Positions 9,969-60,619 of a DNA stretch of 64,000 bases are shown in pieces. The position numbers and the translations under genes were made by a program. Every line of letters starts with the position of its first letter. The stretch's first letter is position 1. The notes under the pieces are model-generated. The model had not been told where the DNA came from and did no database searches. It worked only from the letters and a program-made list of their open reading frames with translations. Source of the DNA: Narcine bancroftii (taxonomy: Eukaryota); NCBI RefSeq assembly GCF_036971445.1, contig NC_091479.1, positions 5,642,001 through 5,706,000 on the forward strand. Direction: 5' to 3'.

Positions 9969-10003
9969 CCCTTCACTGCGGCTGCGCGGAGCCCGGAGTT
10001 GCC

Positions 10004-13000
10004 ATGATGGCGGCCGCCGCGCTGGCTCAGCTCCTGGACAGACAGGAGGCCGAGGTCCGCCAGCTGAGCCTGGCGATGGAGCAGCTGCAGAGCGGCCACG
10101 AGGAGCCGGCGGCCGGGCCGGACTTGCGGAGCCTCCAAGAGGAAAACGAGAGGTTGAGGTACCGGCGGTTGCACCTGCAGCGGAGCCTGCGGGAGGAGCG
10201 AGCGAGAGGCCCGGCCCCAGGGAGCAGCGGCCCTGGGCTCCAGGTTGGGCCCCGGACACCCCCCCCCCCGAAACCCGGACCCCCACCCCCACCCCCCGAA
10301 ACCCGGACCCCCACCCCCACCCCCCGAAACCCGGACCCCCACCCCCACCCCCCCAAACCCGGACCCCCACCCCCACCCCCCCAAACCCGGACCCCCACCC
10401 CCACCCCCCGAAACCCGGACCCCCACCCCCACCCCCCCAAACCCGGACCCCCACCCCCACCCCCCGAAACCCGGACCCCCACCCCCACCCCCCCGAAACC
10501 CGGACCCCCACCCCCCTACCCCCCGAAACCCGGACCCCCACCCCCACCCCCCGAAACCCGGACACCCACCCCCTACCCCCGAAACGCGGACCCCCACCCC
10601 CTACCCCCCGAAACCCGGACCCCCACCCCCACCCCCCGAAACCCGGACCCCCACCCCCACCCCCCGAAACCCGGACCCCCACCCCCACCCCCCCGAAACC
10701 CGGACCCCCACCCCCTACCCCCCGAAACCCGGACCCCCACCCCCACCCCCCCAAACCCGGACACCCACCCACCCCACTCCCCAAAACCCGGACCCCTACA
10801 CCCACCCCCCGAAACCCGGACCCCCACCCCCACCCCCCGAAACCCGGACACCCACCCACCCCACTCCCCGAAACCCGGACCCCCACCCCCCGAAACCCGG
10901 ACCCCCACCCCCACCCCCCGAAACCCGGACCCCCACCCCCTACCCCCCAAAACCCGGACCCCCACCCCCACCCCCCCAAACCCGGACACCCACCCACCCC
11001 ACTCCCCAAAACCCGGACCCCTACACCCACCCCCCGAAACCCGGACCCCCACCCCCACCCCCCCAAACCCGGACACCCACCCACCCCACTCCCCAAAACC
11101 CGGACCCCTACACCCACCCCCCGAAACCCGGACCCCCACCCCCACCCCCCCAAACCCGGACACCCACCCACCCCACTCCCCAAAACCCGGACCCCCACCC
11201 CCTACCCCCCGAAACCCGGACCCCCACCCCCCGAAACCCGGACCCCCACCCCCACCCCCCCAAACCCGGACCCCCACCCCCCGAAACCCGGACCCCCACC
11301 CCCACCCCCCGAAACCCGGACACCCACCCACCCCACCCCCCAAAACCCGGACCCCCACCCCGAAACCCGGACCCCCACCCCGAAACCCGGACACCCACCC
11401 CCCAAAACCTGGACACCCACCCCCTACCCCCGAAACCCGGACACCCACCCCCAAAACCTGGACACCCACCCCCTACCCCCGAAACCCGGACACCCACCCC
11501 CGAAACCCAGACACCCACCCCCCAAAACCCGGACACCCACCCCCAAAACCCGGACACCCACCCCCGAAACCCGGACACCCACCCCCCCACCCCCCAAAAC
11601 CCAGACACCCACCCCCCAAAACCCGGACACCCACCCCCCAAAACCCGGACACCCACCCCCCAAAACCCGGACACCCACCCCCCAAAACCCGGACACCCAC
11701 CCCCCAAAACCCGGACACCCACCCCCCAAAACCCGGACACCCACCCCCCAAAACCCGGACACCCACCCCCCAAAACCCGGACACCCACCCCCCAAAACCC
11801 GGACACCCACCCCCCAAAACCCGGACACCCACCCCCCAAAACCCGGACACCCACCCCCCAAAACCCGGACACCCACCCCCCAAAACCCGGACACCCACCC
11901 CCCAAAACCCGGACACCCACCCCCCAAAACCCGGACACCCACCCCCCAAAACCCGGACACCCACCCCCCAAAACCCGGACACCCACCCCCCAAACCCGGA
12001 CACCCACCCCCCCACCCCCCAAAACCCAGACACCCACCCACTACCCTCGCTCCCCTGGGCACCGGGCCCTCACTGACTTTTTATTATCGCTAGTGGTTTG
12101 CCTCAGGGATAGGTGTGTTGTCTGTATCAAAGATAATAATGTGGCAGATTGGATCAGCAAGCTTGCAGGTGACTCAAAGATTGGAGGCGTTGTGGACAGA
12201 GTGGAAGGCTTTCAAATGGGCTGTTAATATGTACAAATACATATTGCTTGTAAATATGAGAGGACACTGGTAGCCTTGCCTGCCTGGTTCATTCTTCTCG
12301 CAAGTGCAGTCGCTGATATGCCTGCCTGACAAATGAGGGGATGTTGTTTGTCCACGGTAGGTTACTAGCCAAGTGTACTTTAAGGAACTTGGTGCTCTCC
12401 ACTCTCTCGACTACAGAATTGTTGATGTCCTCCGATATTGAGACCAACAGTCCCACTGTCATGAAGACCATAGAGCTATTGCATTATTTTAAAAACCATG
12501 TCCTTCACTCGAAATAATCTGTTATCTGCTCTGGTCTAAATGACTCTCTTAATCCATTGAATCTTAAATGGTTTGAGTAAGTCACCAGTATCATAGCTGT
12601 GAGATTAAAACAGAAGGATAAAACCAGATGACCACCTGGCACCAACCAAAACACTGAATTTGAACTTGGCAAAATAACTATTGACCCAATTAACTTTGGA
12701 AAGTGCTCCATAAAAATCTGGGATGGTTATTAAAATTTGAACAACAGCCTGAAATAACTTCCACTCTCAGAATCGCGCCTTAGAAGCAGACTCATCTCAG
12801 ACTATCATCTCAGACTTTGTCCAATCACATTGGCAGGAAGCGTCAGAGTTTGCAGAGCAAATGGGAAAGAATAATTCTCAGCAATTCTTAGATAGTCTTA
12901 GCATCGGGTCACATTTGTGCAAGAGAATACATATTCTTTCCTTGCTTAGTCAATCAATAAGTTGACCAATATGTGATGAGTATATGGAATGTTGTCTGTG

Positions 13001-16000
13001 CTGAAGACTTGCCCTCAAGTGATTGCATTGCACTCACCCTGACATCTGTGGCTGTTCTGAAGGATGTAACAACCAGTCTAGGATTGTGGCAGGTAATGAA
13101 GCACCACAAAGACCTCATGACGTAGTCTTTGCTAATTTATCTGTTGCAGATGATATCTCGTGACGCTTGTACACTTCTGGTGAAGATGCTGTTTTTGTTT
13201 CATATTGGGGATAGCCTCTGTGTTTAGTGCAACAGTTTGGTGAAGGAATTAACTCGACAGATCTGCTCGCCCCATGTTGCAGCTGTGTGACTGCTGGATG
13301 TTTAACAACAACCAAAAGGAGCCACACCACAATAGGATCTGACCAAATCATCATTCTGCTGTGACTGTCATCTCCGTCCTGAAGAGAAATGAAGATGGAC
13401 GAACTGATAGTTGTACGAGATAAACCTGTCAAAATTACATTGCAATGCCTACAAGCCTATAATAGAAAGAATGAAGCAATCCTCCAAGCAACAGATCAAA
13501 GATCTGCCATTCTACTGCTTGTAATTCTGAATTCTGCTGGAAAATAGAACTGCTGATGGGAGTTGGAGGCTTGTAATCATCTGTCGTCTACAAGGTCCGA
13601 TGTGTATGGGTGTTGAAAACCATGGTAAAGCAGTCACAAAACAGTTTCACTGAAGTGCAAACGGATGATCCATCTTGACTTCCTTCTGAGTTCCCTGCAA
13701 TGCTGAATCCACCTTAATTCACTTCATATCACGAAACAGCTGAGAACACAAGATAGAGCAAATAAAATCTTTCAAGTTGGAACACTAAAACCTAAAGCTC
13801 CAGTTGGCCTGCAGCCAGTCTGCTCCAGTACAGTTAAAGCACTGGCATCTCCCTGACAATGTGGAAAATTACCCAGCAATGTCCTGTTCCTAGAAACAGG
13901 ATGCATCCAGTCCATTTAATTGTCAGTTCCTCTTCTATTGTTGCCAAAGTGAGGGAAGGCTGTGAACATTGCTTACCAAAGGGCACTTAAACCTCTACAT
14001 TTCTGATTTTGTTTTTACCAGGACCTCTTTGTTCCAGACCACATCATCACAGCAGTCCAAACATGGACGAAGGAACTCAGTTTATAGATAAGGTGAGGGC
14101 GACTAGTTTGATGAAGAGGCAGTATTTGTCATCGTGCTATTGAGGATTTTTGGTCACACTGAGGCCAGTGGGTATGAGGGGAGAAACACTCAAATGATGG
14201 GAGTTGTGCCTTGTATAAAAGAAAATGGTTGTGACGCTATTGATCACCTTTCTCCACTGTTTCATAACTGCTCCTTCATAGAAATTGAGAAAGTAGCTCA
14301 AGGCCATTCAGCTCTTGGAACCTGCTCCACCATTCAAAAGATCACGGTTAATTATGTAATTTCAGGACCCTATTCCTGCCTTCTTTCTTATGCTCCTTGA
14401 TCCTTTAAAGCCAATAGGGTCACATTCCTTTAACATTTCTTGTGAACTGGTCTCAACAACTTTCTGTGGGAGGGAGTTCAACAAGTTCTCAACTCTAAAT
14501 GAACAAATGTCCTCATCACGGTGGTAAGTGTTTGCCCTGATCCTTAGCTATGATCCCTTGTTCTGGACTTCCCCAACATTGGGAACATTCTTCCTTCATC
14601 TAACCTGTCACAATATAGCACGTCTCCATGCAATACCTTCTCATTGTTGTAAGTTCAAATGAGGGCAACCCGAGACTATCCAGACTTCACGTGGCAGTCT
14701 TTCCATCCCACTTGCTGCACCGCTTCAGTAACAAGAGTGTCCTTTCTCAGAGTTTTTTAAAATTAGACATACAGCACAGTAACAGGTCAATTCGGCCCAC
14801 AAGTCATTGCTGCCGAATTTACACCCCATTAACCTACAGCCCCCGGTATGTTTTGAACAGTGGAAGGAAACCAGGGAAAACCTACACAGACATGGGGAGA
14901 ACGTACAAACTCCTTATAAACAGCATGGGATTCAAACTCCAGTCCCAATTGCTGGCGCCGTAAAGGCGTTGAACTAACTACTGCACCAACCGTGCGCTCC
15001 CCATTAGGAGATCAAAACTACATACAACATAAGGTGTGGCCACATCAAGGTTCGATTCAAATACAATAAGCTCTCAATGCTTCCATATTCACATGCTGTT
15101 GGCTGTATTTACTATTAATGATGCTGCACTGTGGCATCAACACACTGCAATTTTAAAGCACGGTTTCATTGGTGCAGCTTTGAAGAACGACGACATTGAA
15201 AGTTTAAGCACTGCCTTGAGACCAATCATGAATGAGGTGGATGTAGGGCTACTGTAAGGAACTAATTCTAGACTGCATTTTGTTCAGTGGACCAAGGAAG
15301 AATAAACATGGATTGTGAGGCCATATGAAGGAGCAGAGGGTTGGAGGATGTATCCATGGTGATTCAAAAAACATTAAAATGACCTGAAGAACAAACTGAT
15401 GTGTGCTCCACACATTCACTGATCTTCTTTGGAATATTCCATGCATTGTCCTATTAGAATCGAGTAATCCTTGTGTCGTTTGCACTTGACTTTTCTGTAC
15501 TCTATTCTTACTTATCACATTTCTAACTTTTCTCTCTGCCTTAGTCTTTCTGCAATGGATTCCCATCCCCTGTCATATTGGTTGCCTGGTGTAGAGCAAG
15601 CCTTAGCTCGCTAGTTGAAGAGGAATCACCTATCAGCAAGGAGTGTACAGTTGTTGAATGCACAAAAGCGTGACTGAAGGTTAAGATTCCAAGTGGAGGG
15701 AGGTGTGGGTATTGGTTTAGGGTGGGCTGGAAGTGTCAGAGATCTGATGAGAGGGGGTGCAAGCAGTGATAATGAATGTGCCCATAATGGCTTTGTGGTT
15801 GAAGAGTATGCAAGTTCATTGAGAAAGGCTGTTTGATCCACTGAAGTATCCCAATGTGAGCAAGGAGAAATGAAAAAAGGGTGGATTAAGGGACACACCA
15901 GATTCCTGGAATTAAAAGAGGATATTAATTTCTCCTTGTGCTTTGATTTGAACAAACCATCCCTTCCACTGGAGTAGTTCCCTGCCCTCAAGCACACTCT

Positions 16001-19000
16001 CTGGGAGTGGCAGACAGGTGGGCTAACACAGAAACTGGTTATGCTTTCAGTGGACGGAGTGGCCATCTTGTATTGAGGAGCGATTACAGCTGTTTGGGAA
16101 TCTCAAACATGATCGCGACTCCATCGTGAGAATGCAAACTGCCCAGCAGAGGAAAGCTATCACTGTCACACTGCTGGATGGCTTCAAGATAACTGGGGAA
16201 TCCTGGAGGACAACGCCATACCACATTGCTTGTCAAATCAGGTAACTGTCCAGCTTCTTCTTCAGTACCAGAGTCCTCCCCATTCCCTGCACACACAATT
16301 CAGTTATTGTCATATGAAAACAGGCTGTTCGGCCCAACTTGTCAATACCATCCAAACTAGTCCCACACGCCCATGTTTGGACAATATCTGTCTAAATCTC
16401 TTTGAATGTAACAATTGACTACTCTTTCCTCTGCCAGCTCAATCCATAAGCCACCGCCCTCTGAGTAACGAAAGCTGCACCTTTGGTCCCTTTTCAATCT
16501 CCTATCATCTTAAATCCATGCCCTCCAGTTTTATATTCTCCGACCCTGGGAAAACAAGTTGTGACTGTTTACCTTATTTATGTCTCATGATTTTATAAAT
16601 ACAAATCCTCCTGGTTAGCCACCTGTGCTAGAGGGCAGTCGTTCTCAACTTTTTTCTTTCCACTCACATGCCACCTTAAGTAATCCTTTACTAACCATAG
16701 AGTACCTATTCATCCTATGCCATAGTTGCTCTGTGGTTGGTAATGGATTGCTTAATCCATGTGAATGGGGGGAAAAAAAAATTGAGAACCACTGCCCTCA
16801 GGAGAAAAATACCAGCCTATTTCAGCCTCTCCTTGCAATTCAAGTCTACCAATCCCAGTAGTATTCTTGTGAATCTTTCCAGCTTAATGATATCCTTCCT
16901 CTAGCCAGGTGACCAAAACTGTACTCAGTACTCTACAAGTGCAGTCTCATCATCATCTTGTTCAGTTGTAAGATAATGTCCTGCTTGTGTTCTCATTTCC
17001 CTGAATGGTGAAATGCTGCCTCCATCGTGTTGTCTACCTGCATTGCCACTTTCTTGGAACTTTTTACCTCTACTAACGTCTCTTTGTTCAATAATACTCT
17101 CCAAGGCCCTGCCATTTACCAAGCAAGTTGAGCCCTGATTTAACCTATCAAAGTGCAACATCTGACATTTGTCTGATTTTTAAATTCTTTTTCTCTTTCC
17201 CTGCTTATCTTGGATCCCACTGAGCTCTTAAATAATCTTCACTATCCTCTGCACTCCAATTTTGGAGTCAACTGCAAACTTAACAACCACTCTAACTACT
17301 TTGTTTGTCATCTATATTAATAACTTGAATGACAATCGTGCACTCAGTGGCACACCACTGGCTACAGGCCTCAAATCCAAATAACAACTCTCCACTGTCA
17401 TCGTTAATTCTGTACCCAATTTGCCAGCTTACCATTGATGCCATGTGATCTGTCCTTCCAAATGAGCCTACCATGCAGGATCTTGTCAAAGGTGTTTCTT
17501 AAATTCATGTAGACCATATCACCTCTTCAAAAACTCACTCAAGTTCATGAGACACTATTTCCCACATACAAAGCCAGGCTGGCTGTACTAAAAGGACTTT
17601 GCCTTTCCAAATGCAAATAGATCCTGTCTCTCAGAACCCCATCCAGAAACTTGCCCACGAGTGACATTGAGCTCAGCGACCCGTAGTTCTCTGGCTTGTA
17701 TTTGCGACCTTTTTAAAAACAAAGGCACAACATTCACAACCCTCTAGTCTATTGACACTTCTCCCATGATTCAAGCATGCCAAATACTTCACCATTCTGC
17801 CTACATCCATCACCTACTAACAACTAGTAACCTTTTGTTGCTCTTGCACTACTGCTTTCTCCTCCATGAGCTGCTTACTTCAGGAGATCTGTGATGCAAG
17901 AGTAACTAACTGTAGCCAAGTTTGCGGATGACACCAAATTGAATGGAAGAGCAAATTGTAATGAGGATGTGGAGAGTCTGCAGAGGGATAGAGTTAAGCT
18001 GGATGAGTGGGCAAAGGTCTGGCAGATGGAGTACTATGTTAGTAAGTGTGAGGTGATCCACTTTGGCAAGAAAAATAAAAGAGCTGAATATTACTTAAAG
18101 GGTGAAAACCTACAGCATGCTGTTGTGCAGAGGGACTTGGGAGGGCTTGTGCATGAATCGCAAAAAGTTGGGTTGCAGGTGCAGCAGGTTATTAAGAAGG
18201 CAAATGGAATGTTGGCCTTCATCGCTAGAGGAATTGAATTCAGGAGTAGGGAGGTAATGTTGCAACTGTACAAGGTACTGGTGAGACCGCACCTGGAGTA
18301 CTGTGTCCAGTTCTGGTCTCCATATTTGAGGAAGGTTTTGGAGACGGTCCAGAGGAGGTTTACTAGGTTGATCCCTGGGATGAAGGGGTTGACTTATGAT
18401 GAAAGATTAAATCGTCTAGGATTGTATTCACTCGAATTCAGAAGAATGAGAGGAGATCTGAAAGAAACATATCGGATTATGAAGGGTATGGATAGGATAG
18501 ATGTAGGAAGGTTTTTTGAGCTGGCCGGGGAAACTAAAACGAGAGGACACAGTCTTAAGATTCGGGGGAGTAGATTTAGGACAGAGATGAGGAAAAATAG
18601 TTTTTCCCAGAGAGTAGTGAATGTTTGGAATTCTCTAACCAGGAAAGTGGTTGAGGCTGCCTCATTAAACATATTTAAAATTCAGTTTGATAAATTTTTA
18701 CATGATCGAGGAATTAGGGGATATGGGGAGAAGGCAGGTAGGTGGAGTTAGGTCATAAATTAGATCAGCCATGATCGTATTGAATGGCGGAGCAGGCTCG
18801 ATGGGCCATTTTTGGCCTAGTCCTGTTCCTACTTCCTATGTTTTTAATAAGTGATCAAAGCTTTTAATATCACGTGGTCACAATAATGTCTTTTCCTGTT
18901 GCATTTATTTAGATGTACAGTATGATAACAGGCATTTTGGCCCACAAGCCTGTGCAATCTAATTGACCTATAACTCCAGAACGTATTGAACGTGGGGAGA

Positions 19001-22000
19001 AAGTACCAACTCCTTACAGACAGCGCCAGATTCTAATCCGGATCAGAGGTGCTGTAACACCATTGCACTAACCATGCCACCCCACTTTTCATCACCTTTA
19101 CAAAAATGCCATTGATTCTGTAGATTGCGCCTACGAATCATACTCTGCCAAATAATATTGTGATTTCTTTAAAGGTTTTATTTGCACATTCTCTGTGTAT
19201 GTGGTGAAACTGTCATCTTATAGATAACTGATATGATTCAGAAATACTCCCAACTGTGTTAACTCAGTATCACTCCACACTCCAGGATCATCCACTCCAG
19301 TTTAAGCCTGGTATTGCCTTCATTCTGCCTGGTCCCCTTTTGTGTTTGCGACTTGAAAGCTGCTGTATTTGATATGATTTTGTGTTGATCAGAAACAAGC
19401 CCTCTGCACTTGACATATGAGTTGTTCTGTTGGTTGACTTTGATTGTAGCTGGGAATTAGAGGAGAATTCGCTTGTAGCCAAGGTTAATGGCAAGCTGTG
19501 GGATCTGGATCGGCCCCTCGAAGATGACACCAGACTTGAACTCTTGACATTTGAAGATCCCGAGGGCCGTGCTGTAAGTTACCTGCCAGTGTCGGGCAGT
19601 TTCATTTCATCTCTTGATATGAGGTGTCAGGGATAGATTGTTTGAATCTCTCAATTTGAAATGAATGTACAGTTTAGGATGTGGTATCCCAAGTCCCGCA
19701 TCGGACTTGTCAGCCACAAACGAGCCTGCAGCTGACGTGGACTTTTTACCCCCTCCATAAATCTTCGTCCGCGAAGCCAAGCCAAAGAAGAAAGAAGATC
19801 CCATGGTGATAAGGACCACATGATTAAGTGGATCATTCTGTCAAAAGCAGGTTTTTAAGTCTTCAAGGCCAAAGTCTAATTACTGGTTTGGCATATAATA
19901 ATTTGGGAACTAATTCTGCTGACTAGAGAAATTGTGAAGGATTCAGTGTTTCTAATTCTAAAGTTGAGGACTATCTAGCCATATAGTTGAATGTAACTGT
20001 TGAAGGTGTCTAACTAATTCACACTGATTTCTGTTTGTAACACAGGTATACTGGCACTCTAGTGCCCACATCTTGGGAGAAGCCATGGAGCGATATTATG
20101 GTGGCTCTCTGTGTCATGGTCCATCTTTACAGAATGGATTCTGTTATGACTTGTTCCCAGGAGACAGGTATTATGTCCAATAGTCTTCTTCTGAACATCA
20201 GACTCCCATTCGGGTTTTCAAGTAAATCCAGGACTACATGAAAGACTTTCATGTCTTTACATAGAACTCCTCTGTGCCCTCCCCCTTCCATCTCCCTCCA
20301 AGTTAAATAACAATCTGCTAAATATTGCTGACTTGCTGGCTGTTACAGCCCCTCCTTTTGCTTGTACCCTATATTCAAGGAGAGGGTCTCTCTTGTGGGA
20401 TGTTGTACCTTTTGGGTCTTTCTTTTCTTTGATCACGTCCTTGCTAGCATGGATTGTATAGACTTACTCGGATCACCGCAATAAAAATTCTCATTGCCCC
20501 TCACCTGTGTGGGTGCACTCTTCAGTGGAAAGGAAATAGATACAGTAAAACCCCCTGTATCTGGAACCTACGGGGATTGTGGATGCCAAGTATGCACATT
20601 TTCCGGTTGCTTGAGACTCACTCTGACAATACCTAACTAAATACACCAGCATTAAGAATAATTTTTAAAAATCAGTATTATAGTCCTTAATTATGTAAAG
20701 TTTGCTTTAATCAGACAATTCCCGTAACTTTTTAAATTTAAATTCGACCCTGGTCACTGGCGCTGTGAGACAGCATTGACACAGCATTGCACTAACTACT
20801 ACACTAACCGTTCCACCATCAGAATTAACAGTTTACAGATAAAACCTTACCCATATACTTGATGCTAATAAAGACTCTGACAAGGGAGAGATAGGGAGTC
20901 ATTTTAGGAAAGTTGCCCCAGCGGTGAGCGGCGTCGGCCAGTTCTTTGTCCTGGGCGCTGCCATTTCATTCAAACACAACTTTATTCAAACAGCTGCTGT
21001 GGACAGGGCACAACTGGGGCGCTCCGCTGGTTAAAAATTTGCTCTCATCCTCACCAAGGGGTTGTGTGTTGCTTCAGAGAGCATTTACTTTCACAATTTT
21101 AAACTTTTATTTTAATTTTTATTTGTTCTTATTCATTCCAACCATCTATTTGTTTCCTCATCAATTTTGCCAATTGCTTGAATTCCAGATAACAGGGATT
21201 TTACTGTATGTGCAAAAGAGTTTTGACACTTATTTTACTCCACATTCTCCAGCCATCTCTGTCATCATTAATGCCCCCTCAGGGGTTCTACTTCCTCACC
21301 TGGTCTTTTCCTTTCTTAGAGATGTATCTAGCAATGACTTTCCACACTTGGAGAATATATGTAAATCGATCATAATGGATTGTCAGGCATTTGAGAGGCT
21401 CGAAGTGAGCAAGGAAAATTTGCTTGAGATGTTCAAGGTAATAATCATGATTAATTTACCATCCTTGAGTGTTTTTTGAATGCTGTATGAGGGGCTGAAT
21501 GATCGATGGCTGGTCTCTTCGGTCTTCATTCTTACTGAGCCATGGGGAAAAGAATATATGGCGCAAAGCTTCATTCCAACCTGATGTGCTCGCTATATCC
21601 ATGTGGCCAAGCTGTACCCTGGAACTATGGTCATTCCTGAGGGAAGTGGCTGGGGTTGCAGAGGAGAGAGGCAGCCTTGATTGACTCCTAACATCTGAAG
21701 GTTTTATAGACTGAAGGTGGATGTGGAATGGTTTCAGGACTGAACTGGGAAACTTCAAGCCAGTTTCCCTGAGAAAGCCCAAGTACAAAATGCCAGGAAA
21801 CCCTTTACCAGTTGGAAGAGTGGTAGCTGTTTGCAGCATGTAGTTTTCTGAGTGAGATTCATGGCTTCTTTCTTGGGTTTAAATTTTTACGTTGATGTTA
21901 CCTGCAATAAGTTGTTAATGAAACTTTCTCTTCTTTCCCAGTACAACCAGTTTAAGGTGAATATATTAAATGAAATGATTGACAAGCCAACCACTGTTTA

Positions 22001-25000
22001 CAGGTCAGTAGGAGATTGATTTATCTTGTCTACTATTAACATGTAGTGGTGGCATAGATGGGGAGGCAGGAAGATGTAGTGGTGGGTCATATTTATGCAA
22101 CCAGATGCCCAGATATTGATCTGCTCACTCAGTGATATCTGAATCTAGTGAGCCTGTTACAACAAGAAAATCACAGGAGCTGCTGGAATCTTGAGCAAAC
22201 GACGAGAAGCTGGAGAGGCTCAATGGGTCAGGCAGCGTCCGTGGAGAAAAACGGCAGTCATCATTTCTGGTCAGGACCTTTTTCAAGGGTAGCACCATGT
22301 GGCATGCTGAGGTTTTGTGACTCAGCTCTGGTGTAAATTTGCACAATATGTGCCAGGTAAGCTGGCCACAATGGAACCAGGTGAATTCTGCAGGAACCAG
22401 TGGTCTAGGACTGATAGATCCCTTCAATCCAGGCAAGGTCCCAGAGATATTGAAGCTCTTCTGTGCCCAGGTTAAGATCACAGTCCTGACACTGGTTCTG
22501 GACCTAATCTCCAGTAATTCTGGTGTTTTGTTGCAGGTGTGGCTCATTGATTGACGTGTGCCAGGGACCCCATGTCAGACACACTGGGAGAATTAAAACA
22601 TTCCGAATTTACAAGGTAAGGGAGCAGATTCTCTCCAGTGTTGGATCAAGGAGACTATTTCACTGAAATGATAGAATAATATTTTTTAAATTGGTGATTT
22701 TTTATTACATTATGCAAATTTAAAGAACTCCTCGATTTGTTGGAAAGGCAAGTCCACTGTGGAGACATTACAAAGAATCTATGGAATCTCATTTCCTGAT
22801 AGCAATCTGCTGAAAGAATGGGAGAGAGTTCAAGAAGAAGCCAACAGCTGGGATCATATAAAAATTGGACAGGTATGGGAAAAATTCTGTGATCATTTGA
22901 CTTTGTGTGGGGGCTTGTGTCGGGCCGTTGGGAGAGCGGGGCAGCGGTGTCAGTGTGGGGAAGTCCCATGCGGGAGGTCCCTGCGCTGATAGCCTGTGCC
23001 GGCTGTCCCAGCTGACAGCCAGCCATCCCAAACCTGACAGCCCGAAGGGACAGGAGCCGGAGTGCGCTCAGAGGCACATCCGGTGCAGCTATCCCTTCAG
23101 GAAGCCAGTGCTGTGCTTTTAGTGCTGCCGCCTGAATGGCAATTCAAAGGCCACTTCTGCAGGCGCATTCTTGGCGGAGAGTGCACCTGAAGAAGCCTAG
23201 TGAAGAAAATGATACCTGGGTAGAGAATGCTGAGGCAATGGAAAAGCTACAAAGTGGATGGTTGTCGTGTCCATTTCAAATTAACAGGGTCCAGATACGA
23301 CATTGGACATTATGTTGGATGACCATCTAGATCCATGTTTGTCTCTTGATTAAATAAAATTTGATTAAAACAACAGCAAGTCAGGCAGTGCCTGTTGAGT
23401 GAGAAGCAGTTAATGGGCTAAGCAGGAAAAGTTCGAGATGAAATATGTTCTTTTAAAAAAAGATAAGTGGTGGAGAGAACAAAAGAGGGTCTAAAAGGGT
23501 GAATCCAATAAAAAATTATATGCAGGATCAAAGAAGGACAAGTGAATAATTCTGCCATTAACCACAAACTCCACTTTCAAGTTCGACCTTCCAAAGTGTT
23601 TCACTTCATACTTATCTGGATTGGACTCCATCGGCTACTTCTCTGTCATAGGTTACAACAGGATATAGACAGGATGCAGAGTTGGGCAATGTTCTGCGCT
23701 ATCCACACCTCCAACCTACATATCATCTGCAAATTTACCCACCAATCCATTTCTTCTTCCAAGTCATTTCTAAAAATCATAAAGAACAGGGGTCCCAGAG
23801 CAGAATGTCACTAGTCACTTATCTCCAGGAAAAACACATTCATCTACTCCCACCCTCTGCCTTCTGCAGGCAAGCCAATTCTGAATTCAAACAACCAAGT
23901 TTCCATGGATCCTATCCCTTATAACTTGTTGCCCTCTTCTGTTTATCTTCTTCAGCAACAATCAGAAATAGATGATGTCCATCTCTATCTCTTTGTTTGA
24001 CAACTAAAATAGGATGAGCAGGAAATTCCAGCAACCAGGTTTCTCTCAATGTTTGACCCCTGCTGTAAGCTTCTGACTGTAGATTCAGACCATTGCCGAG
24101 GCTCTGTGTTTCAGAATCTAGTATGCCACTTGTACCTGCGCTAATTTAGCTTCTCTGCAGAAATCTCATCCATGGCTCTGAACTTGACTCTTCCAATGCA
24201 TTCTGGCTATTTTTCTCAGTATTCTACACAAGCTTGTGATCATCTAAACTGCATCAACTGCTCTTCCTCACACCCAAGTCCTGTCTGCACACCTCCTCTC
24301 TGCCTAGTTACCTCCATCAGCTGGTTGAGTAAAGTTTCAATGTTAAAACCACTGGACCATAGACAGGAGTGACTGGGGAAGAAAGTGCCCATGTAAGATT
24401 GTTTGAGTTTCCATGTATTTTTCTCTATTCTGCAGGTGTTGATTAGACTGTAATTGCGTGATGTAACAGGCACTTTCTCATCAACTTAATTTCCATTTGT
24501 TTCCCAGGAACAGGAGTTGTTTTTCTTCCATGAGCTCAGTCCTGGGAGCTGTTTCTTTCTCCCCAGAGGGGCTTTTATTTATAACACGCTGATGGCATTT
24601 ATCCAGGTAGGGGTTTCATTCCTCAATTTATTTACTGAAATCACTCCAGCAGTGGTCTTGTAAAAAATGTGCAGGCAGTTGGAAGGGCACTTCATAATCT
24701 TTCAGATCCCTCCTTGGTCCGATCCAAAACAAGGACGTCAACCATTACACCATTGTCGTTGACGGAAGAAAGGAGAAAAGTCGGATTCTCAGCATTCCCA
24801 AGAAGTTTGTGTGAGATCAAGCTGGACCGACCAGTGCTGTGGACTTGAAATGCCAGGCCTCAAGTGAAGAGCAGTGATGTGCTTGTTTTTACAGTGCAAG
24901 GTTGACGAGCTGCTCTTCTGAGGGTTTCAGGGAAATAATGACCGACCTCTTGGGTGTTGGAGTTGTGATGGAAGCTAGTAGTTACATGGAAACCATTTTC

Positions 25001-28000
25001 ACTGCCTCCAAAGGATGTGGATTTGAGTTCCACTTGAGGGAGCTGAGCATAAAATCTTGGTTTATGTTTCACTGATCAAATAGGGGGTGGTATGAAGAAT
25101 TGCTGTTCGGCTGACGGACTGAGATGCAATGAGACAAGGATTCCTTGGACTGTTTTTAAGAAGACTTGGGGAGTTGTGCCTGATCCTTTGCCAGTGTCAT
25201 CGAAGCAGGCAGACTACCAGGTCGTTCTGCTGTTTGGGAGCTCGCTTCAAGTGAACTGCAGGCGTTGGTTTCTGTTTTGCAGCAGATGTTGCTGTTCAGA
25301 AATAAAACCAGTAAGGATAGGTATACCCTGCTTTACGAATACTCAAATTATGAAAATTCACTTTGCAAAGAAAACAGCGTTCACTTTTACGAAAGGATTT
25401 GAATGGTTTTTGCTTTGTGAAAATAGTCTCCAATAGTCATGAATATGGGTCTTTGCTTTACGCTATTTCAGCTTACAAAAGGTCTCTTAGAAATACTCTA
25501 GTTCGTAAAGCAGGGTATACCTGTACTCAAAACACTCAGCAGGTCAGGCAGTTTGTGTGGAAAGATGAACACAGTTAATGTTTTGTGTTGAAGACCCTTC
25601 ATGTAACAAAGAATCTTCAACTTGAAACATGAACTCATTCTTTTTCCACAGATGCTGTCTGTCCTGTTCAATTCCAGCATTTTCTGTACATGATTCAGAG
25701 GGTGTTCTATCATTTGTAAAGGACTGAATACAGTCTTACATTTTGACTGTATTTGTACCTGTTACAGATGGAGTATCGAAAACATGGATTCACTGAAGTC
25801 GTCTCTCCAAATATCTACAGCAGTCGTCTGTGGGAGGTGTCTGCCCATTGGCAATACTACAGCGATAAGATGTTCACCTTTGATGTGGAGAAGGAGACAT
25901 TTTCACTGAAACCCATGAACTGTCCTAGTCACTGGTACACATGAAATCCAATGATTGTTGGAAAATTTATATTCACATGATTTATCAGAAGTCAGCATGT
26001 ACTCAGCATCTGATTTGTATTGTGGGTGAGCTAGTTTTGGGACCCATCTGGATCTTGTAAACACAGAGTATGGACCTACTTTCAGCTTATGGCAGGAATC
26101 CAAGGGCCTTTTCCCTCAGAATCCACAGATCTTATGCAATAGTACGGCTGAAGTCCCTTGAGTGTTGGTGTTGGCTGAAGCTATTACAAGGAGTTGCACC
26201 TTGGGAAGTCAAAAGCAAGGGGAAAGTGCATAGTTAATTGCAGTTAAAAGCATTATTGTGTAGTGGGATCTGGGAATTAAGATTCATAGCTCCTTGAAGT
26301 GGAAATGCAGTAAATGGCTGGTAAACAAGGTATATGGTATGCATGTGCCTTCGTTGGGCAGGACATTGAGTAGAAGAATAGGAGGTCATGATGTGGCTAC
26401 ATAAAACTTGGTTAGACTGCTCTTGGAACACTATAATTCTGGTCACCCTATTACAGGAAGGCTGTGGAGATACAAGGAGATTTACCAGGTTATTTCAGGT
26501 TAGAGAGTTTAAACTATGGTGGGGGAGAAGACGGATGAAGGAATTTGAGTTGTTTTCTCTGGCGTGTTGGAGGCTGAGGGGTGACCAGGTAGAAGTTTAT
26601 AAAATCATAACACATTCAGAGTCTTTTTCTCAAGGTAAAAACTTGACATATTCAAGAACATGCTTTTAAGGGAGGGGGTGGAGTTTAAAGGATGTGTGGG
26701 ACACTAAGAGTGGTAGATACCTGGAATGTGCTGGCAGGGTAGTGATGGAAGCAGATTTTTAAGATGCTTCTAGTAGTCATGTGAATGTGAAGGGATGTAG
26801 GAATCTCTACTGGGTGCAAGCAGCAGAGTTTTAGTTGGTTTTGAACATGTTCGGTGCAGAAACAAGGCCCGAAGAACTGGAAATAGGTCAGACTACATCT
26901 GTGGGAAGAGAAATTTTTCATTGAAATGGATTACTGAAGGCATGGGAAGATGGCGATGGGGGGGGGGGGGGGTGTTGGGTGTGGGGGCTTGCCCAGCAAC
27001 TTCAGAATAGGAGAAGATGTGGGAAAATCTAGATACAACATTGGCTGTGGGAAACTCGGAGAGAATTCATGGAGGAGAGAAAGAAAGCAGCAAATTAATG
27101 TTGGAAAAGTAATAAGCAAACTAAATAAGTAGAGCAAACACAGGCAAAAAGAACATAGCATTGAAATGTGCAGCTACCGTATGCTAAAATGGCAAAATGA
27201 TATTTTTTCTAAAATCTTGAAGCATTTTCAACAATAGCAAGAACAGAAGCAACGGGTATAAAATGTTACAGCAGGGTGACCACAGGTGGGATTTAGCCTC
27301 AAGCCCTGAAGAAAGTCTGCAAGCTTGACAAGGTCATCTGTAATTCTCCAGAACTCTGGAGAATGCAAGCCGAGTCTGTTTTATCTCTCCTCCTTTTACA
27401 AGCCTGTAGTGACAGGAATGAGTCTGGTGAATGGTTGTTGCTTTCGATCTGTGGTAAGCATATCTGTTTCTAAAGACCATTTACAGGTGCAGTCTCAACA
27501 GAGTTAGACATTTTCTGCTTGCAGTCAAATCATCTCATAACAAAGGTCAACTTGCCGTCCTAATTGTCTGCATTTGCATAGTAGCTTTCAGTGACTGAAG
27601 CTGAGGTCACAGTTCTGCTTTTCTATGATGGAAAGCATGGAGTTACTGAGGGAGGGAGCCTTTGGCTCAAAAAGGAAACTCCGCTACACGTCACACCACA
27701 TTTCAGCAATATAAGTAGTTGCTCATTGTTGTTGAAGGATAATCAGCTACGGGCCTTAATTCTGTGAAATAAAGGGTGTGGAGGAGGTAGCAAGGGCAGG
27801 TATGGAATGTATTTTTTTCATAGCTTTGTTTTATTTTTTTCTGGGTGGGTAAGACATGCTGTAAAAGCTGTTGTGAACCGACCTTAGACTGAGTTGTTTA
27901 TGAAGTCTTTTCAGAGACCCATGTAGAGTCGCTGTTCTCGATCTGAAGTCACAGATCGGCCATGTTAGGTAAGGACACCTGATTCCCTTTCTTGAACACA

Positions 28001-31000
28001 AAAAAAAACAGGTGGATTTTTCCACCACTTGGTAGTTCTTTGCTCTTTAATTCTAGAATTTTCTGCCATGAATTTGTATTTGTTGTGTACTCAATAACGA
28101 GCTATGGATAATAGTTGCCTGTAACTTATTTTCAGTTTGATATTTGGCCATCGCCCTCGATCTTGGCGAGAATTACCTCTTCGCTTTGCTGACTTTGGTA
28201 TCCTTCACCATAATGAGTTGTCAGGAGCATTGACTGGATTGACTAGAATGCGGCGATTTGAGCAGGATGGAAGCCACATCTTCTGCATGATGGAGCAGGT
28301 GGGTAACGAGGTCTCCCTGGGCTCGCAGCTCAGCTGGTTCTCCTGTTGCTGGTAGCTCCTTAAAAGGTGAATAAAAATTACACGTTCCTTGCACTAGTTG
28401 TAATTTATCCCTAAAGGTTCCAACTCTCTCTGGGGTAAATTCCCTGTCGATATAGACTCTCCCCAGGATACAGTCCTTCTTGGGCATAGCTCCCGAAGGT
28501 GCTGATACTAGGATTCGATGATACTGCATAGGATTGATGGGCTCATTGTTTGGGCGCAGTTTCATGGCCCCGAGAAATGCTTGCTAAGCTAATGGGCCTT
28601 AATTCTGGAAAAGAATTTGTGCATCGTTGCATCCATCCTGATTCTGTGCCTTTTGCTGGATGATGATCAGATGCGAGACTTCTGGGCTTACTTAGCTAAG
28701 GGTGCCATCACAATTTAGCTCACTTAACTAAGCAGAATTTTGTCTAAAAGATGAACTTCTTTCTCAATGTATCTTTGTTGTTTAGGACAGAATCATCAGT
28801 TTTAGACACAAAATTTGTACCCGTTAATGCTCGCGCATCTGAAGCATTTGCTCTTCTGCCAGATTCAGGAGGAAATAAAGAGTTGCCTTGACTTCCTGCG
28901 CTCGGTGTACATGGTCCTTGGCTTCACTTTCCAACTGAAACTCTCTGTGCGGCCAGAGATATTTCTAGGAGACGAGAACACATGGAATCAAGCAGAAGAG
29001 GCAAGTGATTACTGGACAGGTCAATTTGGCAGCAATCTGACTTAGCATTGACTGAGTGGGTGCACGCACTTGTTCTTTCTTGTCATGAAGAGAGCAGCAT
29101 GGTTAAAGCTTGTTGGAAAACTCCCAAATCTCATGGTGGAAAGGAAGATCTCTGATTGTATTAAATTTTACAACATCTTGGATTTTTTTGAATTTAGACA
29201 TGCAGCACGGTTTCAGGCCCTTCTAGTCCATGAACCCGTTCAGCTCATATACTCCAATTAATCCTCACCTCCTGTACATTTTGAAAGTGAGGATGAAACC
29301 AGAGCAAACCCACAAAGACCAGGGGAGAACGTAGAATCTCATTACAGGCAGTACCGGATTCAAACCCGGCTCAATGCCACTGTGCTAACCGTGCCGCCCA
29401 TTTCTAGTGATGGCGCAGAGGAATTTTATTCTCTGGGCTTGTTGGATGGGTCTGTGCAAAGGGAGCTTTATATTGTCTCTACCCTGCACTGTACCTGCCC
29501 TGGGAGCATTTGACCTACCCAACATAATAGAGAGATTTCTCCAGAATCAAGCAACACTCTGGCACTGTGGGTGAGTTTGATTCCCATACAGTTTGCAGCA
29601 GGCAGCCATGGGGACTTGAGTGATCATGAAAATGTTCAATCCAGTTTCAAGATGTAAAAACGAAGCAATCAACAGCAGATGGAGCTGAGTTTCCTTGTTG
29701 TGTTGTGTTTTAGAAATTGAAGTGCAGTTTGAATGCGTTTGGTGAGCCTTGGAGACTGAGTTCAGGAGAAGGAGCTTTCTACGGGCCGAAGGTTAGTGTG
29801 GGGACCATCTCTGTTTGAGAGCCTACAGTGAGTCTAAGCATCCTAGAAGCTTTCATGTTCTCTAATTGACTGCAGATTGATGTTGATGTAAAAGATGTTC
29901 TGGGCAGATGTCATCAGTGTGCTGCCATCCAGTTGGACTTCCAGCTTCCAATTCGGTTTAATTTGACCTATGTTGGGTGAGTTCAGTGACTTCTTGGAAT
30001 TTTGTGGAAATATTACATCTGGGAAATAATTTTTGCTTCTCCCCCTTTCTGTGTTTGTGGGTGATGGACAGAAATGTGCAAAGGTGAGTCGATGAGAAAA
30101 TACATCACTAGGCAGATTGAGGACTGTGTGGATGGTCTTTGTATTTTTTGTGATTGACCTCAAGGATGTGGATGAGGGAGGAAGGGTGTCCTGCAGGACA
30201 CAGCATGCATTGGGATTAACTTGGTTTGACAGTATGCCATGATTAAATGACACCTGGGGATTGAAAGACCCACTCACAAGTAAATCCAGGAATGGAGTGG
30301 GATGGTGAATGCTTGGTTTTGTGTGTTACTGATTCATCTTTCTTCTTGCAGCAAGGATGGAACAGACGAGAACCACCCAGTTATCATCCATTTCACTGTG
30401 TTGGGGTCCCTGGAGCACATGTTGGCTATCCTTGCTGAGAACTGTGCTGGGAAATGGTAATGTTTCACTGCAAACGCTGCAAAGAAAGTATCTCCAGACA
30501 ATGCCTTGGGCCATCCTGACTTTGCATTACCAGCTTAGTTTGAACTTTTGGGAATTCTGTCCCAAATACTGTGTGTGGCATTGCAGTGTCTGAAGCCTTG
30601 TTGTCCTCGAAAAATTCCGCTTTGTATTTGGCCTGTTACCTGCTCCAGTTTGGCACACCAGATCCAAACATGGCAATACAAATATGAAAAGACCATGTGC
30701 TGCGTATTTGTGAAAAGTCTATTTTAATTGAACTTTAATCATTATTCAGACATACAGCACAGTAACAGGCCCTTCTAGTCCACAAGCCAATGCCACCCAA
30801 ATACCCCAATTAACCTACGACTCCAGTATGTTTTGAAGGGTGGGAGGAAACCAGAACACCCAGAGGAAACCCATTGCAGACATGGGGAGAATTTACAAAC
30901 TCTTCACAGACAGAGCTGGATTCAGTGCCAGGTTGCTGGTACTGGTATAGTGTTACACTAATTTGACATTTAAAAAAAAAAATCTGAACATGGCAATGCT

Positions 31001-32304
31001 GTTGGGAGAAAGAAGAGAGTATATATCGATAACAGGTCAGAGCAGTTATTAGAAGATATCAAATTGCAATATCTGGGCAGTCAGGATTAGACCAAAGTTT
31101 ATCCTGTGTCTGCCTCTCTGTGATCGTCCTACTAAACCCAGCTGACCCTTGTCTGAATTGTCTTTCCACGTCTCACCCTCCCTCCTAACCAAGGGCCGAA
31201 TGGTAGTTGTACAACAGCAACTGAATGATTGATAGATGTTGATTTCAGAAGCAGGCTGAAGAAAATGACCTGTATGGTCTGTGACTATACTCCTTTGGTT
31301 GAGGTGTATCATCAGTTTACAAAAGCTCTCCCTGTTGTGCCCTGCTTCTCCTCACCGACTGAAGTTCTGGTAGAGTGAGGGAAGGAGACAGCTGCTATCT
31401 CGATGTGTATATGCTAACTTAAGGTTTTAGATATTACCATGTACATGCGGGAAATAAAGGGATAGGGGTGGAGCACAAGCAACATACAGGGCTTTAAATT
31501 AATCTGAGGATTGTGTTCAGTGCAGGTATTGTGGGCTTGTTCCTGTACTCTACTGTTCTACATACACATGACAACAGGTTCCTAAAACTTGTCAAAAATT
31601 ACAGGAGGTACCTGTAGGAGCACGTGTATGAAATGGAAAGTCGGCGTTGTGATTGAAATTATGGTTTTAACTGTTTGTGCTTTTTTAACTCTAGGCCATT
31701 CTGGCTCTCTCCACGGCAGATTATGCTGGTCCCCACTGGGCCAGGCAGTGAAGAGTACAGCCAGAGGGTGAGCAGAGGCTGTCACTTCCCCTAGTGTCTA
31801 CCCCTGCACGAGCAACCATCTTCTGACATCTGTTTCTTAATAGGTTTGTCGAGAACTGGTTGAGGCTGGTTTCGCGGCTGATGTGGACCTGGATGGTTAC
31901 TCTTTGCTCAATCAGAAGATTTGGAAAGCTCAAGTTGCTCAGTATAATTTTATCCTTGGTAAATCAAATCACACTCTGGCACTCTGCTCTGTGACTTTCA
32001 TTTTGACTTTTTCTCTCTATTCTCGCTCTGGCAGGTGACCCTTTGTTTTGCAAATGTTGGTATTTATGCACAGTTTTAGGTTTGCTGAAGTTTTTGTTCC
32101 ACTGCCAGCAAGTTGTCCTGGGGATGTAATTTTTTTTTCTTTGTACTTTTTCCTGCAGTGGTAGGAGACGAGGAGAAAGAGAGACACACAGTGAAGGTCC
32201 ATACAAGAAATAACAAAGTTCTTGGCGAGTATTCCTTGGCTGCGGTGCTCGAGAAACTGAGGAGACTTCAGCAGCAGAGAGCTCCGAGTGCTGAGAAGTT
32301 CTAG
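10004..32304 (+). CDS. TARS3: Threonyl-tRNA synthetase 3 (TARS3/TARSL2), 18 coding exons, about 755 aa, key catalytic residues substituted
   Basis: Exons read manually with consistent phases: 10004-10243 ([36 protein letters not shown], the TARS3-type leucine zipper), 16051-16241, 19450-19573 ([18 protein letters not shown] domain), 20046-20167 ([15 protein letters not shown]), 21320-21437, 21942-22003, 22537-22615 ([13 protein letters not shown]), 22726-22872, 24508-24606, 25768-25934 (LKPMNCPSH), 28136-28298, 28863-29000 (GC donor), 29714-29791 (GAFYGPK), 29876-29976, 30352-30456, 31695-31767, 31844-31958, 32159-32304 (TAG). The total is 2268 nt with no internal stop. The gene lies upstream of TM2D3 on the same strand, as human TARS3 does. 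A small phase-0 exon 2 may have been missed. Confidence 0.95.
10255..12040 (+). repeat. C-rich minisatellite in TARS3 intron 1 (28-bp unit grading into a 22-bp unit)
   Basis: Units AAACCCGGACCCCCACCCCCACCCCCCG, then ACCCCCCAAAACCCGGACACCC. The array starts about 11 nt after the exon 1 donor. Confidence 0.95.
14755..14995 (-). mobile_element. tRNA-derived SINE; further copies near 1375-1606, 8570-8748, 18910-19083, 29190-29399, 30745-30961, 39570-39798 and 61395-61640
   Basis: Minus-strand head GCACGGTTGGTGCAGTAGTTAGTT..GAGTTTGAATCCC (A and B boxes), shared body CATGGGGAGAACGTACAAACTCCTTA and tail TTACTGTGCTGTATGTCTAA. Confidence 0.85.
16300..17770 (-). mobile_element. Degenerate CR1 LINE
   Basis: Fragmented RT remnants (..CATGAATTTAAGAAACACCTTTGACAAG.., GAGTACTGAGTACAGTTTTGGTCACC). 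Confidence 0.75.
17910..18845 (+). mobile_element. CR1 LINE 3' part, well preserved
   Basis: [54 protein letters not shown], then the 3'UTR ending CCTGTTCCTACTTCCTATGTT. Confidence 0.95.
19693..19797 (+). mobile_element. Very short RTE 3' end
   Basis: GTCCCGCATCGGACTTGTCAGCC..CCAAAGAAGAAAGAAG, matching the other copies. Confidence 0.88.
20543..21206. mobile_element. Tc1/mariner-pogo (Tigger-like) non-autonomous element
   Basis: Terminal inverted repeats CAGTAAAACCCCCTGTATCTGGAA and TTCCAGATAACAGGGATTTTACTG, flanked by TA. Related pieces at about 40832-41055 and 43660-44060. Confidence 0.8.
25318..25523. mobile_element. Tigger-like MITE
   Basis: Terminal inverted repeats AGGTATACCCTGCTTTACGAA and TTCGTAAAGCAGGGTATACCT. 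Confidence 0.8.
26300..26850 (+). mobile_element. Degenerate CR1 3' fragment
   Basis: [14 protein letters not shown] remnants. Confidence 0.7.
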
Positions 32305-35973: not shown

Positions 35974-36966
35974 GGGTGGGGCGGGCGACCCCAGGGTGGG
36001 GGGTGTGAGGGCGGGCGACCCCGGGGTGGGGGGTGTGAGGGCGGGCGACCCCGGGGTGGGGGGTGTGAGGGCGGGCGACCCCGGGGTGGGGGGTGTGAGG
36101 GCGGGCGACCCCAGGGTGGGGGGTGAGGGCGGGCGACCCCAGGGTGGGGGGTGAGGGCGGGCGACCCCAGGGTGGGTGGGGGGGGTGAGGGGGCGACCCC
36201 TGGGTGGGGGGTGACCCCTGGGTGGGGGGTGAGGGTGTGGGTGGGCGACCCCTGGGTGGGCGGGCGACCCCTGGGTGGGCGGGCGACCCCTGGGTGGGCG
36301 GGCGACCCCTGGGTGGGCGGGCGACCCCTGGGTGGGCGGGCGACCCCTGGGTGGGCGGGCGACCCCTGGGTGGGCGGGCGACCCCTGGGTGGGCGGGCGA
36401 CCCCTGGGTGGGCGGGCGACCCCTGGGTGGGCGGGCGACCCCTGGGTGGGCGGGCGACCCCTGGGTGGGCGGGCGACCCCTGGGTGGGCGGGGCGACCCC
36501 TGGGTGGGCGGGCGACCCCTGGGTGGGCGGGCGACCCCTGGGTGGGCGGGGAGGAGACCCTGGGCGGGCGGGCGACCCCTGGGTGGGTGGGGAGGAGACC
36601 CTGGGATGGGGGGCGACCCCTGGGTGGGTGGGTGGGTGGTGGGACCCTGGGGTGGGGGGGGGGTGAGGGGTGTGGGTGGGCGACCCCTGGGTAGGCGGGT
36701 GACCCCAGGGTGGTTGGGGAGGAGACCCTGGGGTGGGGGGCGACCCCAGGATGGGTGGGTGGGTGGGCGACCCCTGGGTAGGCGGGTGACACCAGGGTGG
36801 GTGGGTGGGTGGGCGACCCCTGGGTAGGCGGGCGACCCCAGGGTGGGCGACCCCTGGGTGGGTGGGGAGGAGACCCTGGGGTGGGGGGCGACCCCAGGAT
36901 GGGTGGGTGGGCGGGCGGGGGGACCCCGGGGTGGGGGGGGGGGTGAGGGTGTGGGCGGGCGACCCC
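35974..36966 (+). repeat. G-rich 19-bp minisatellite (GGGTGGGCGGGCGACCCCT) upstream of TM2D3
   Basis: Directly visible tandem units, each containing GGGCGG (GC box). Confidence 0.95.
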
Positions 36967-37029
36967 GTGAACGTCCAGGCCGGCTCCAGACGTGGAACTT
37001 GGAGCGCGAATCTCCTCACAGAGCAGCTG

Positions 37030-37156
37030 TTGCACGCGACGCCCAGCGCCGCGCCCCGATTGGCTTCATCCACGCGGAGCTGTGATTGGTCGTTTGCCTT
37101 GCGCGCTTGTTGATTGGTCAGTGGCTGTCGGCTCTCATTGGCTGAGGGTGGGAGCG
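37030..37156 (+). promoter_or_regulatory. TM2D3 CpG-island promoter with four reverse CCAAT boxes
   Basis: ATTGG at 37059, 37085, 37113 and 37137 in CpG-rich sequence just before the ATG at 37157. Confidence 0.7.
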
Positions 37157-60560: not shown

Positions 60561-60619
60561 GGAGACAGCCAGGTCATTTCCCATCCACCGTGTATCTGGT
60601 TCCAGTGGCACAAGAACAG

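Follow-up and report, generated by a model that had tools for sequence, protein, structure and literature searches.

The TARS3 gene of the electric ray Narcine bancroftii is expressed, is very likely inactive as a synthetase and may have been kept for its leucine zipper

The window analysed here, 64,000 nucleotides (nt) of the electric ray Narcine bancroftii (G000:C23:5642001-5706000 in a 3.3-Gb genome), carries the TARS3 gene, which encodes a threonyl-tRNA synthetase (ThrRS) paralogue. The sequence and assembled transcripts show that the gene is real and expressed, and its product is very likely dead as an enzyme. The explanation favoured here, with slightly better than even confidence, is that Narcine TARS3 is a non-catalytic pseudoenzyme that docks on the multi-synthetase complex via a leucine zipper. 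Splicing of 18 coding exons (10004-32304, + strand) yields a 2268-nt coding sequence of 755 amino acids (aa) without an internal stop, and the protein is 100% identical to RefSeq XP_069758472.1 (P0002); an earlier note on this DNA, made from the letters alone, had described 18 in-frame exons, and this holds. The intron borders are GT-AG in 16 cases and GC-AG in one. The TGS, editing (SAD), class II core, and anticodon domains of Pfam follow in order, all over cut-off. In a tree of 222 vertebrate-dominated rows, the Narcine copy joins stingray and devil-ray (myliobatiform) TARS3 with support of 1.0; the TARS3 clade comprises 170 rows (support 0.71), and a separate TARS1 clade of 34 rows (0.96) contains a second Narcine copy, on contig C8. 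The tree, the zipper N-terminus, and a TM2-family neighbour all bear out the identity proposed earlier, and on these grounds the gene is the TARS3/TARSL2 orthologue.

Residues were compared at 25 contact sites that were listed from the structural literature after the changes had been seen, and were thus not chosen blind: 16 active-site residues from PMC4964454; D383, Q484, Y462, and Y313 from PMC9880928; the contacts of human M411 and A592 from PMC4536658; and the anticodon contacts R583, E600, and R609 from PMC6430810. The E. coli ThrRS numbering used by the earlier note is correct by equal-length HMMER ranges against 1qf6. Eight of the 25 residues are replaced in Narcine TARS3: R363H, V376M, D383G, T482A, A513T, R520H, R583W, and R609H. 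Several marks of an active ThrRS are thus missing, as the motif 2 and motif 3 arginines are both His, Asp383 is Gly, and Thr482 is Ala; the anticodon contacts R583, E600, and R609 read Trp, Glu, and His. The codons on which the earlier note relied are all in place (CAT at 28209-11, GGA at 28269-71, GCC at 29924-26, TTC at 30392-94, and CAC at 30416-18), as is WDHI at 22849-60. That note had overlooked R583W (31922-24), R609H (32200-02), V376M, A384S, and A513T. Its active-site replacements are real, but two of the motif oddities that it listed, the V of 'HFTVLG' (13/13) and the E of 'FEQ' (12/13), are general states of elasmobranch TARS3 and also occur in elasmobranch copies with intact active sites. 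All three zinc ligands are present, as the note had said (TGT at 25921 for C334, CAC at 28275 for H385, and CAT at 30389 for H511). Q381, Q484, Y462, F379, E365, and R375 are also retained, and the motif-1 region is conserved. Equivalents of the editing residues H73, H77, D180, C182, and H186 are retained in Narcine and in the other four rays. The exons are as follows.

Exon 1, 10004..10243, + strand: start codon (ATG) and the TARS3-type N-extension with its two-helix leucine zipper (aa 1-80)
Cassette exon, 14022..14092, + strand: alternative, 71 nt, in RefSeq models X1 and X3; zipper-less form from ATG 14063
Exon 2, 16051..16241, + strand: TGS domain begins
Exon 3, 19450..19573, + strand: TGS
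Exon 4, 20046..20167, + strand: editing domain, H73 and H77 equivalents retained
Exon 5, 21320..21437, + strand: spliced coding sequence
Exon 6, 21942..22003, + strand: longer by one codon in relatives
Exon 7, 22537..22615, + strand: editing D180, C182, and H186 equivalents retained
Exon 8, 22726..22872, + strand: RDHRK reads WDHIK at 22849-22863
Exon 9, 24508..24606, + strand: motif 1/dimer helix begins
Exon 10, 25768..25934, + strand: motif 1; zinc ligand C334 (25921) retained
Exon 11, 28136..28298, + strand: motif 2; R363 to H at 28209-11, V376 to M at 28248-50, D383 to G at 28269-71, A384 to S; H385 retained
Exon 12, 28863..29000, + strand: GC donor at 29001
Exon 13, 29714..29791, + strand: Y462 retained
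Exon 14, 29876..29976, + strand: T482 to A at 29924-26
Exon 15, 30352..30456, + strand: motif 3; H511 retained, R512 to F, A513 to T, R520 to H at 30416-18
Exon 16, 31695..31767, + strand: spliced coding sequence
Exon 17, 31844..31958, + strand: anticodon domain; R583 (human R663) to W at 31922-24
Exon 18, 32159..32304, + strand: E600 retained, R609 to H at 32200-02; stop TAG

In active ThrRS, Arg520 stacks on adenine. Asp383 binds the threonine hydroxyl (PMC9880928). R363 is Arg in 145/145 bony-vertebrate TARS3 rows and in 16/16 chondrichthyan TARS1 proteins, and alignment maps it to R442 of human TARS1, where R442A 'completely eliminated' aminoacylation while angiogenic activity was kept (PMC4536658). 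In mouse TARS3, R509A clearly reduced charging, and the remainder was ascribed to co-purified partners (PMC5909460). Because the motif-2 Arg, Arg520, and Asp383 are lost together, and because motif-2 Arg mutants are impaired, Narcine TARS3 is very likely inactive in aminoacylation. It is plausible that the body of the protein keeps its fold or acts as a scaffold. An AlphaFold2 model from 87 rows has a mean predicted local distance difference test (pLDDT) score of 67, with the motif-2 region below 50 and no TARS1 control (a model from 18 rows reached 49.5), and it matches ThrRS structures, with a template modelling score of 0.84 to 4p3n by target length; this match is what the alignment would predict, and the model is unable to separate a dead enzyme from a live one.

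The retained zinc ligands, together with the other ligand residues kept from Q381 to R375 (named above), would be compatible with residual or altered catalysis, in which His at 363 and 520 and the zinc site support weak or changed chemistry, or amino-acid or zinc sensing. The white shark has reached His at the same three places (363, 520, and 609), which also speaks for it. However, five active-site ligand contacts and two anticodon contacts are gone together, and replacement of the motif-2 Arg alone is enough to inactivate human TARS1 (PMC4536658), so that this reading is very improbable. The new codons (CAT, CAC, TGG, and CAT) are each one transition away from CGN, and the convergence on His is probably explained by the fact that Arg CGN codons lie one transition from His; elsewhere Ser, Gln, or Trp is found. 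Positive selection for His was considered and is unnecessary, as one-step transitions suffice and other lineages carry other residues.

Transcript contigs carry the same changed bases. Runs X5-X8 were taken as RNA by guess, and splicing was then seen in contigs of X5, X6, and X8, which represent three samples of one study. In these contigs, which mask rare variants and yield no expression level, all seven introns between exons 11 and 18 are joined (7/7), no letter differs from the genome in the listed exon pieces, and all key codons are covered: record 13 of X8 spans the codons of R363, D383, T482, R512, and R520, and records of X5 and X6 span R583 and R609. The DNA run X9 (organism B) has no exon joints; exons 11, 14, and 15 lie outside its cover. 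The RNA comparison that the earlier note had proposed thus comes out in favour of the genomic letters. An artefact, that is, an assembly error or RNA editing that restores Arg or Asp in the transcript, is refuted at the majority level by the agreement of three samples at all key codons, and parallel changes are present in RefSeq proteins of nine other species. No support was found for it, and it is hardly credible, although the loss of rare variants from contigs leaves room for minor RNA editing. The GC donor of intron 12 (29001-29002) is used in each of the three RNA samples. Introns 14 (29977-30351) and 15 (30457-31694) have low-depth contig cover in X5 and X6, at about one tenth of exon depth, which may reflect intron retention or alternative splicing; in the same runs bins within introns 11 and 17 are empty, and contigs are interrupted where exon 11 begins. 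With the cassette exon (14022-14092) included, the zipper frame stops once 101 aa have been encoded, and ATG 14063 then opens a zipper-less protein. The cassette may switch the product between forms with and without the zipper, or may be splicing noise, and at the protein level it did not resemble the additional linker found in sharks. Record 13 of X8 continues for 249 nt beyond exon 2 and is compatible with either isoform.

Changes at contact sites are not confined to Narcine. With one model taken per species, 10 of 13 elasmobranch TARS3 proteins are changed at one or more of the 25 sites, compared with 0/16 chondrichthyan TARS1 proteins and 0/120 bony-vertebrate TARS3 rows. The bony rows are cluster representatives and isoforms among top hits, and are therefore biased to conserved proteins; the 120 remained from 145 after removal of seven Astyanax models misaligned in exon 14, three truncated rows, and 15 redundant isoforms. 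Among rays, R609H is present in 5/5 and R583W in 3/5. White shark TARS3 carries R363H, R520H, R609H, Y462C, and Y313N; basking shark (Cetorhinus) TARS3 carries R520H and the editing change H77Y; smoothhound (Mustelus) TARS3 carries R520S, R583Q, and the editing change C182S; and the TARS3 of two catsharks carries Y313D, Y462P, and H309Y. TARS3 of the horn shark, sevengill, and sawshark has no contact-site change. On the accepted species tree, the erosion must have arisen separately in rays and in galeomorph sharks. The restriction of the loss to 'this lineage', as the earlier note put it, is therefore too narrow.

The most reduced form is a bamboo shark (Chiloscyllium punctatum) protein, XP_072408837.1 (isoform X2, P0282), of 363 aa, in which zipper exon 1 is joined in frame to exon 9 and exons 12-18. 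It is without nine exons (2-8, 10, and 11), and thus without TGS, the editing domain, C334, and motif 2, and has Gln at both anticodon arginines; it is a protein model only, in which exon deletion and exon skipping look alike. A whale-shark gene prediction (P0280) retains the zipper exon. This erosion of elasmobranch TARS3 is apparently an unreported, clade-wide pattern: no publication on catalytic loss of shark or ray TARS3 was found in searches of a library with few subscription papers, and such sequences may be present in the supplementary alignments of PMC5909460 and PMC6794377.

If TARS3 were simply decaying, then breaks of the reading frame would be expected together with the amino acid changes. 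On the Narcine branch, TARS3 has 0.207 aa substitutions per site, compared with 0.036 for TARS1. Changes private to Narcine were assigned by column comparison with living species and are protein-level proxies, not codon-based; they were counted at columns in which all four other rays and at least five of eight sharks agree. Private changes fall at 6/22 contact sites, 27/266 other invariant sites, 9/77 nearly invariant sites, and 25/135 variable sites, such that contact sites exceed invariant ones (p=0.028) and invariant sites lie below variable ones (p=0.015). At the invariant sites, 14 of the 27 changes are conservative, versus about 33% expected (p=0.033), and the rate of change there is more than half of that at variable sites. 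The editing domain has 14/98 invariant sites changed. Under a neutral model that places the changes at invariant sites in a fully neutral phase, with mutation opportunities counted on the Narcine coding sequence and frameshifts omitted, about 92 missense changes would be accompanied by 5.9 stops, or 9.8 stop and splice hits, and none was observed (P of 3e-3 and 6e-5, or of 0.016 and 4e-4 with lower ratios). Because no breaks are present where 5.9 or 9.8 were expected, these counts argue that the frame of Narcine TARS3 has been under selection. Marks of a pseudogene (stop, frameshift, lost splice site, and silence) were looked for, and none was found in the spliced coding sequence or the contigs. 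A very recent total release from selection may have occurred.

The N-terminal extension is the best candidate for what is selected. Nine of 10 mapped zipper positions are hydrophobic, and two helices are predicted, at 2-29 and 39-67; L11, L21, L44, N48, L51, and L58 are invariant in 13/13 elasmobranchs. Between rays and sharks, identity is higher in helix b (0.82) than in the catalytic (0.79) and anticodon (0.66) domains, and in tetrapod pairs the order is reversed (0.71, 0.88, and 0.81, respectively). Entry of TARS3 into the complex via AIMP1 and RARS1 in human cells depends on both zippers, and the N-extension by itself is enough for it; the zippers of TARS3 and RARS1 are homologous (PMC6794377). 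Complex predictions of zipper aa 1-70 with two AIMP1-like exon peptides scored 0.35, 0.33, and 0.33, against a mark of 0.34 and controls of 0.01, 0.02, and 0.23; the peptides are single exons, and the scores weigh neither for nor against docking. Near-identical tRNA-binding (PF01588) pieces are present at C17:156906527-156906721 and C29:12188687-12188815, in addition to the AIMP1-like gene on C8, and one of the two may be a duplicate or remnant. In the lamprey ThrRS cluster (P0021, P0150, and P0157), isoforms begin with a zipper of the TARS3 type or with a short N-terminus of the TARS1 type. Judging from such isoforms, the zipper may be older than the divergence of TARS1 and TARS3, having been an alternative first exon when there was one gene.

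Elsewhere in the Narcine genome, two further ThrRS loci have a motif-2 exon that is canonical. The gene on C8 (exons 2-18 spliced) is TARS1 and is canonical at 39/39 tabulated sites, editing site included; the gene on C11 is probably mitochondrial TARS2. The course of events under the favoured explanation would then be as follows. TARS1 would do all cytosolic tRNA-Thr charging, which would free TARS3 catalysis from selection. Mutable Arg codons would be lost first, by R to H, W, or Q changes that are single transitions from presumed CGN codons. Anticodon recognition would have been lost first in the ray ancestor (R609H in 5/5 rays), and ATP and threonine binding later, on the Narcine branch. 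Selection would keep the frame open, both because the zipper-bearing product is useful and because a premature stop would probably expose the entire mRNA to nonsense-mediated decay; the body would then be carried along as a weakly constrained passenger or a dimer surface.

Several observations weigh against this docking role. Because the rate of change at invariant sites exceeds half of that at variable sites, because the excess at contact sites is carried by arginines (4/5 versus 6/22, p=0.047), with none at non-Arg contact sites (4/20 versus 45/291, p=0.39), and because the 67 private changes as a whole are not significantly enriched for conservative ones (26, p=0.19), the TARS3 body is, as far as these counts go, weakly constrained; the contact-site list itself was drawn up post hoc. 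Columns of the zipper region and of the catalytic domain changed equally often on the Narcine branch (4/35 and 27/237, respectively). Helix a identity is lower among elasmobranchs (0.46) than among tetrapods (0.60), and the zipper position of human L68 is Arg in 13/13 elasmobranchs. Two of three RefSeq models (X1 and X3) include the cassette that uncouples zipper from body. Of the four basic residues of the mammalian C-terminal nuclear localisation signal (mouse, human), two of four aligned positions are basic in Narcine. The TARS3 knockout of zebrafish had no growth phenotype (PMC10200997). Finally, TARS3 of skates, sawfish, and chimaera was absent from length-limited, weak searches that returned their TARS1, and full-length TARS3 of the zebra shark was likewise not returned by limited searches that returned its TARS1; a search for exon-1 homologues gave two proteins only and missed known shark TARS3, and is hence too weak to show absence. 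Outright loss of TARS3 in some chondrichthyan lineages would fit, and truncation is a possibility as well.

Many of these observations are shared with the main rival, in which elasmobranch TARS3 is dispensable and drifts slowly to loss with no positive job, its frame kept via weak selection (for instance, against truncated or misfolded products that poison TARS1 dimers) or intact through recent release. The weak constraint, the equal change of zipper and body, the frame-uncoupling cassette, the low-depth contigs over introns 14 and 15 in X5 and X6, the weak searches that did not find TARS3 for several chondrichthyans, and the mild zebrafish knockout would all be accommodated, as would the fact that the residues lost differ by lineage and are mainly one-step transitions. 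Nevertheless, slow decay is unlikely. No stop or splice break is present where about 10 were expected, and the 10 eroded annotated proteins are likewise unbroken, though only annotated ones are visible. In addition, the erosion is old (R609H in all five rays), splicing is clean at 7/7 introns tested in three samples, and the bamboo-shark model loses domains in frame with the zipper kept. The age of R609H and the unbroken frame also disfavour the 'early stage of decay' that the earlier note had offered beside a pseudo-synthetase or scaffold; of that reading, the identity, open frame, expression, and very likely loss of threonine activation stand, while the confinement to one lineage is too narrow and the early decay is disfavoured.

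Retention of the editing residues in Narcine and the other four rays raises a further alternative, in which TARS3 clears mischarged tRNA-Thr or is the inactive partner in a heterodimer with TARS1. Editing by mouse TARS3 relies on the histidines of this set (PMC5909460), the TARS3 catalytic domain mediates dimers with TARS1 (PMC6794377), and the motif-1 region is conserved. SLIMP, the known system nearest to Narcine TARS3 in being a dead class II paralogue, is a precedent, as a duplicated class II synthetase with an ablated active site and a non-catalytic role (PMC10570016, PMC9437257), a role which in Narcine would be by analogy. Unlike Narcine TARS3, however, SLIMP is mitochondrial, invertebrate, and an essential heterodimer subunit that keeps tRNA binding; the Narcine protein is a cytosolic-type vertebrate paralogue, is weakly constrained, has lost the anticodon arginines needed to grip tRNA-Thr and thus likely tRNA binding, and has a complete partner in TARS1. 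The TARS1 editing site is intact, 14/98 invariant editing-domain sites have changed in Narcine, Cetorhinus (H77Y) and Mustelus (C182S) have replacements at editing residues, and the domain is absent from the bamboo-shark model. An editing-only or partner subunit is therefore decidedly unlikely. Free-standing editing factors, such as archaeal ThrRS-ed and AlaXp, similarly keep editing function without synthesis, as the kept editing histidines of Narcine might suggest, but Narcine TARS3 has a full-length body and lost anticodon contacts, and sharks vary in editing residues.

Other known systems resemble Narcine TARS3 in part. Mammalian TARS3/TARSL2 (ThrRS-L) is its orthologue, with the same domain order, a two-helix zipper N-extension, and an adjoining TM2-family gene, but mouse TARS3 is able in vitro both to charge tRNA-Thr and to edit it (PMC5909460), and 120/120 bony-vertebrate rows are unchanged at the 25 contact sites, of which Narcine has lost eight. 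Catalytic-null splice variants of human synthetases, and R442A TARS1, also combine a non-catalytic body with a side function (PMC4536658, PMC4756856); these arise from splicing of an active gene or from engineering, whereas the Narcine null is fixed in the gene, and nulls arose in several lineages separately. AIMP1/2/3 and the RARS1 zipper exemplify non-enzymatic complex membership through leucine zippers, which is predicted for Narcine, while mammalian TARS3 is peripheral and dispensable for complex integrity (PMC10200997, PMC6794377).

The role of TARS3 is puzzling, in that Tars3 knockout left tRNA-Thr charging unchanged and yet the mice were stunted, so that mouse growth needs TARS3 (PMC10200997). 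Natural catalytic nulls that arose more than once within a single vertebrate class allow the enzymatic role of TARS3 to be told apart from its non-enzymatic one. They predict that a zipper-bearing, catalytically dead TARS3 rescues part of the mouse knockout, and the reverse question becomes why bony vertebrates retain every contact residue. A broader proposal is put forward tentatively, at a little below even confidence: the one vertebrate tRNA synthetase that is duplicated would repeatedly have become, in sharks and rays, a non-enzymatic adaptor within the multi-synthetase complex. The job of TARS3 that is conserved would then be its zipper, with catalysis separable and still needed only by bony vertebrates. 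As part of the same proposal, the stages would run from active (horn shark, sevengill, sawshark) through anticodon-blind (stingrays, devil rays) and fully dead (electric ray, white shark) to domain-stripped with the zipper kept (bamboo shark). The catalytic loss is invisible in databases because elasmobranch TARS3 proteins are all annotated as ordinary 'threonine--tRNA ligase'.

Downstream of TARS3, a neighbour gene on the + strand (37146-44302) has a TM2-family domain at 44180-44302 and is likely TM2D3, which lies beside TARS3 in the human genome as well. Short tandem copies lie upstream of the TARS3 ATG (9640-9970), and a long C-rich tandem repeat occupies the start of intron 1 (10250-12050); similar C-rich or G-rich repeats occur near 36000-37000 and 57600-60600. 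At 56176-57225, a 350-aa open stretch resembles a fragment of a reverse transcriptase of the long interspersed nuclear element type (Pfam RVT_1, E 5e-6, below cut-off).

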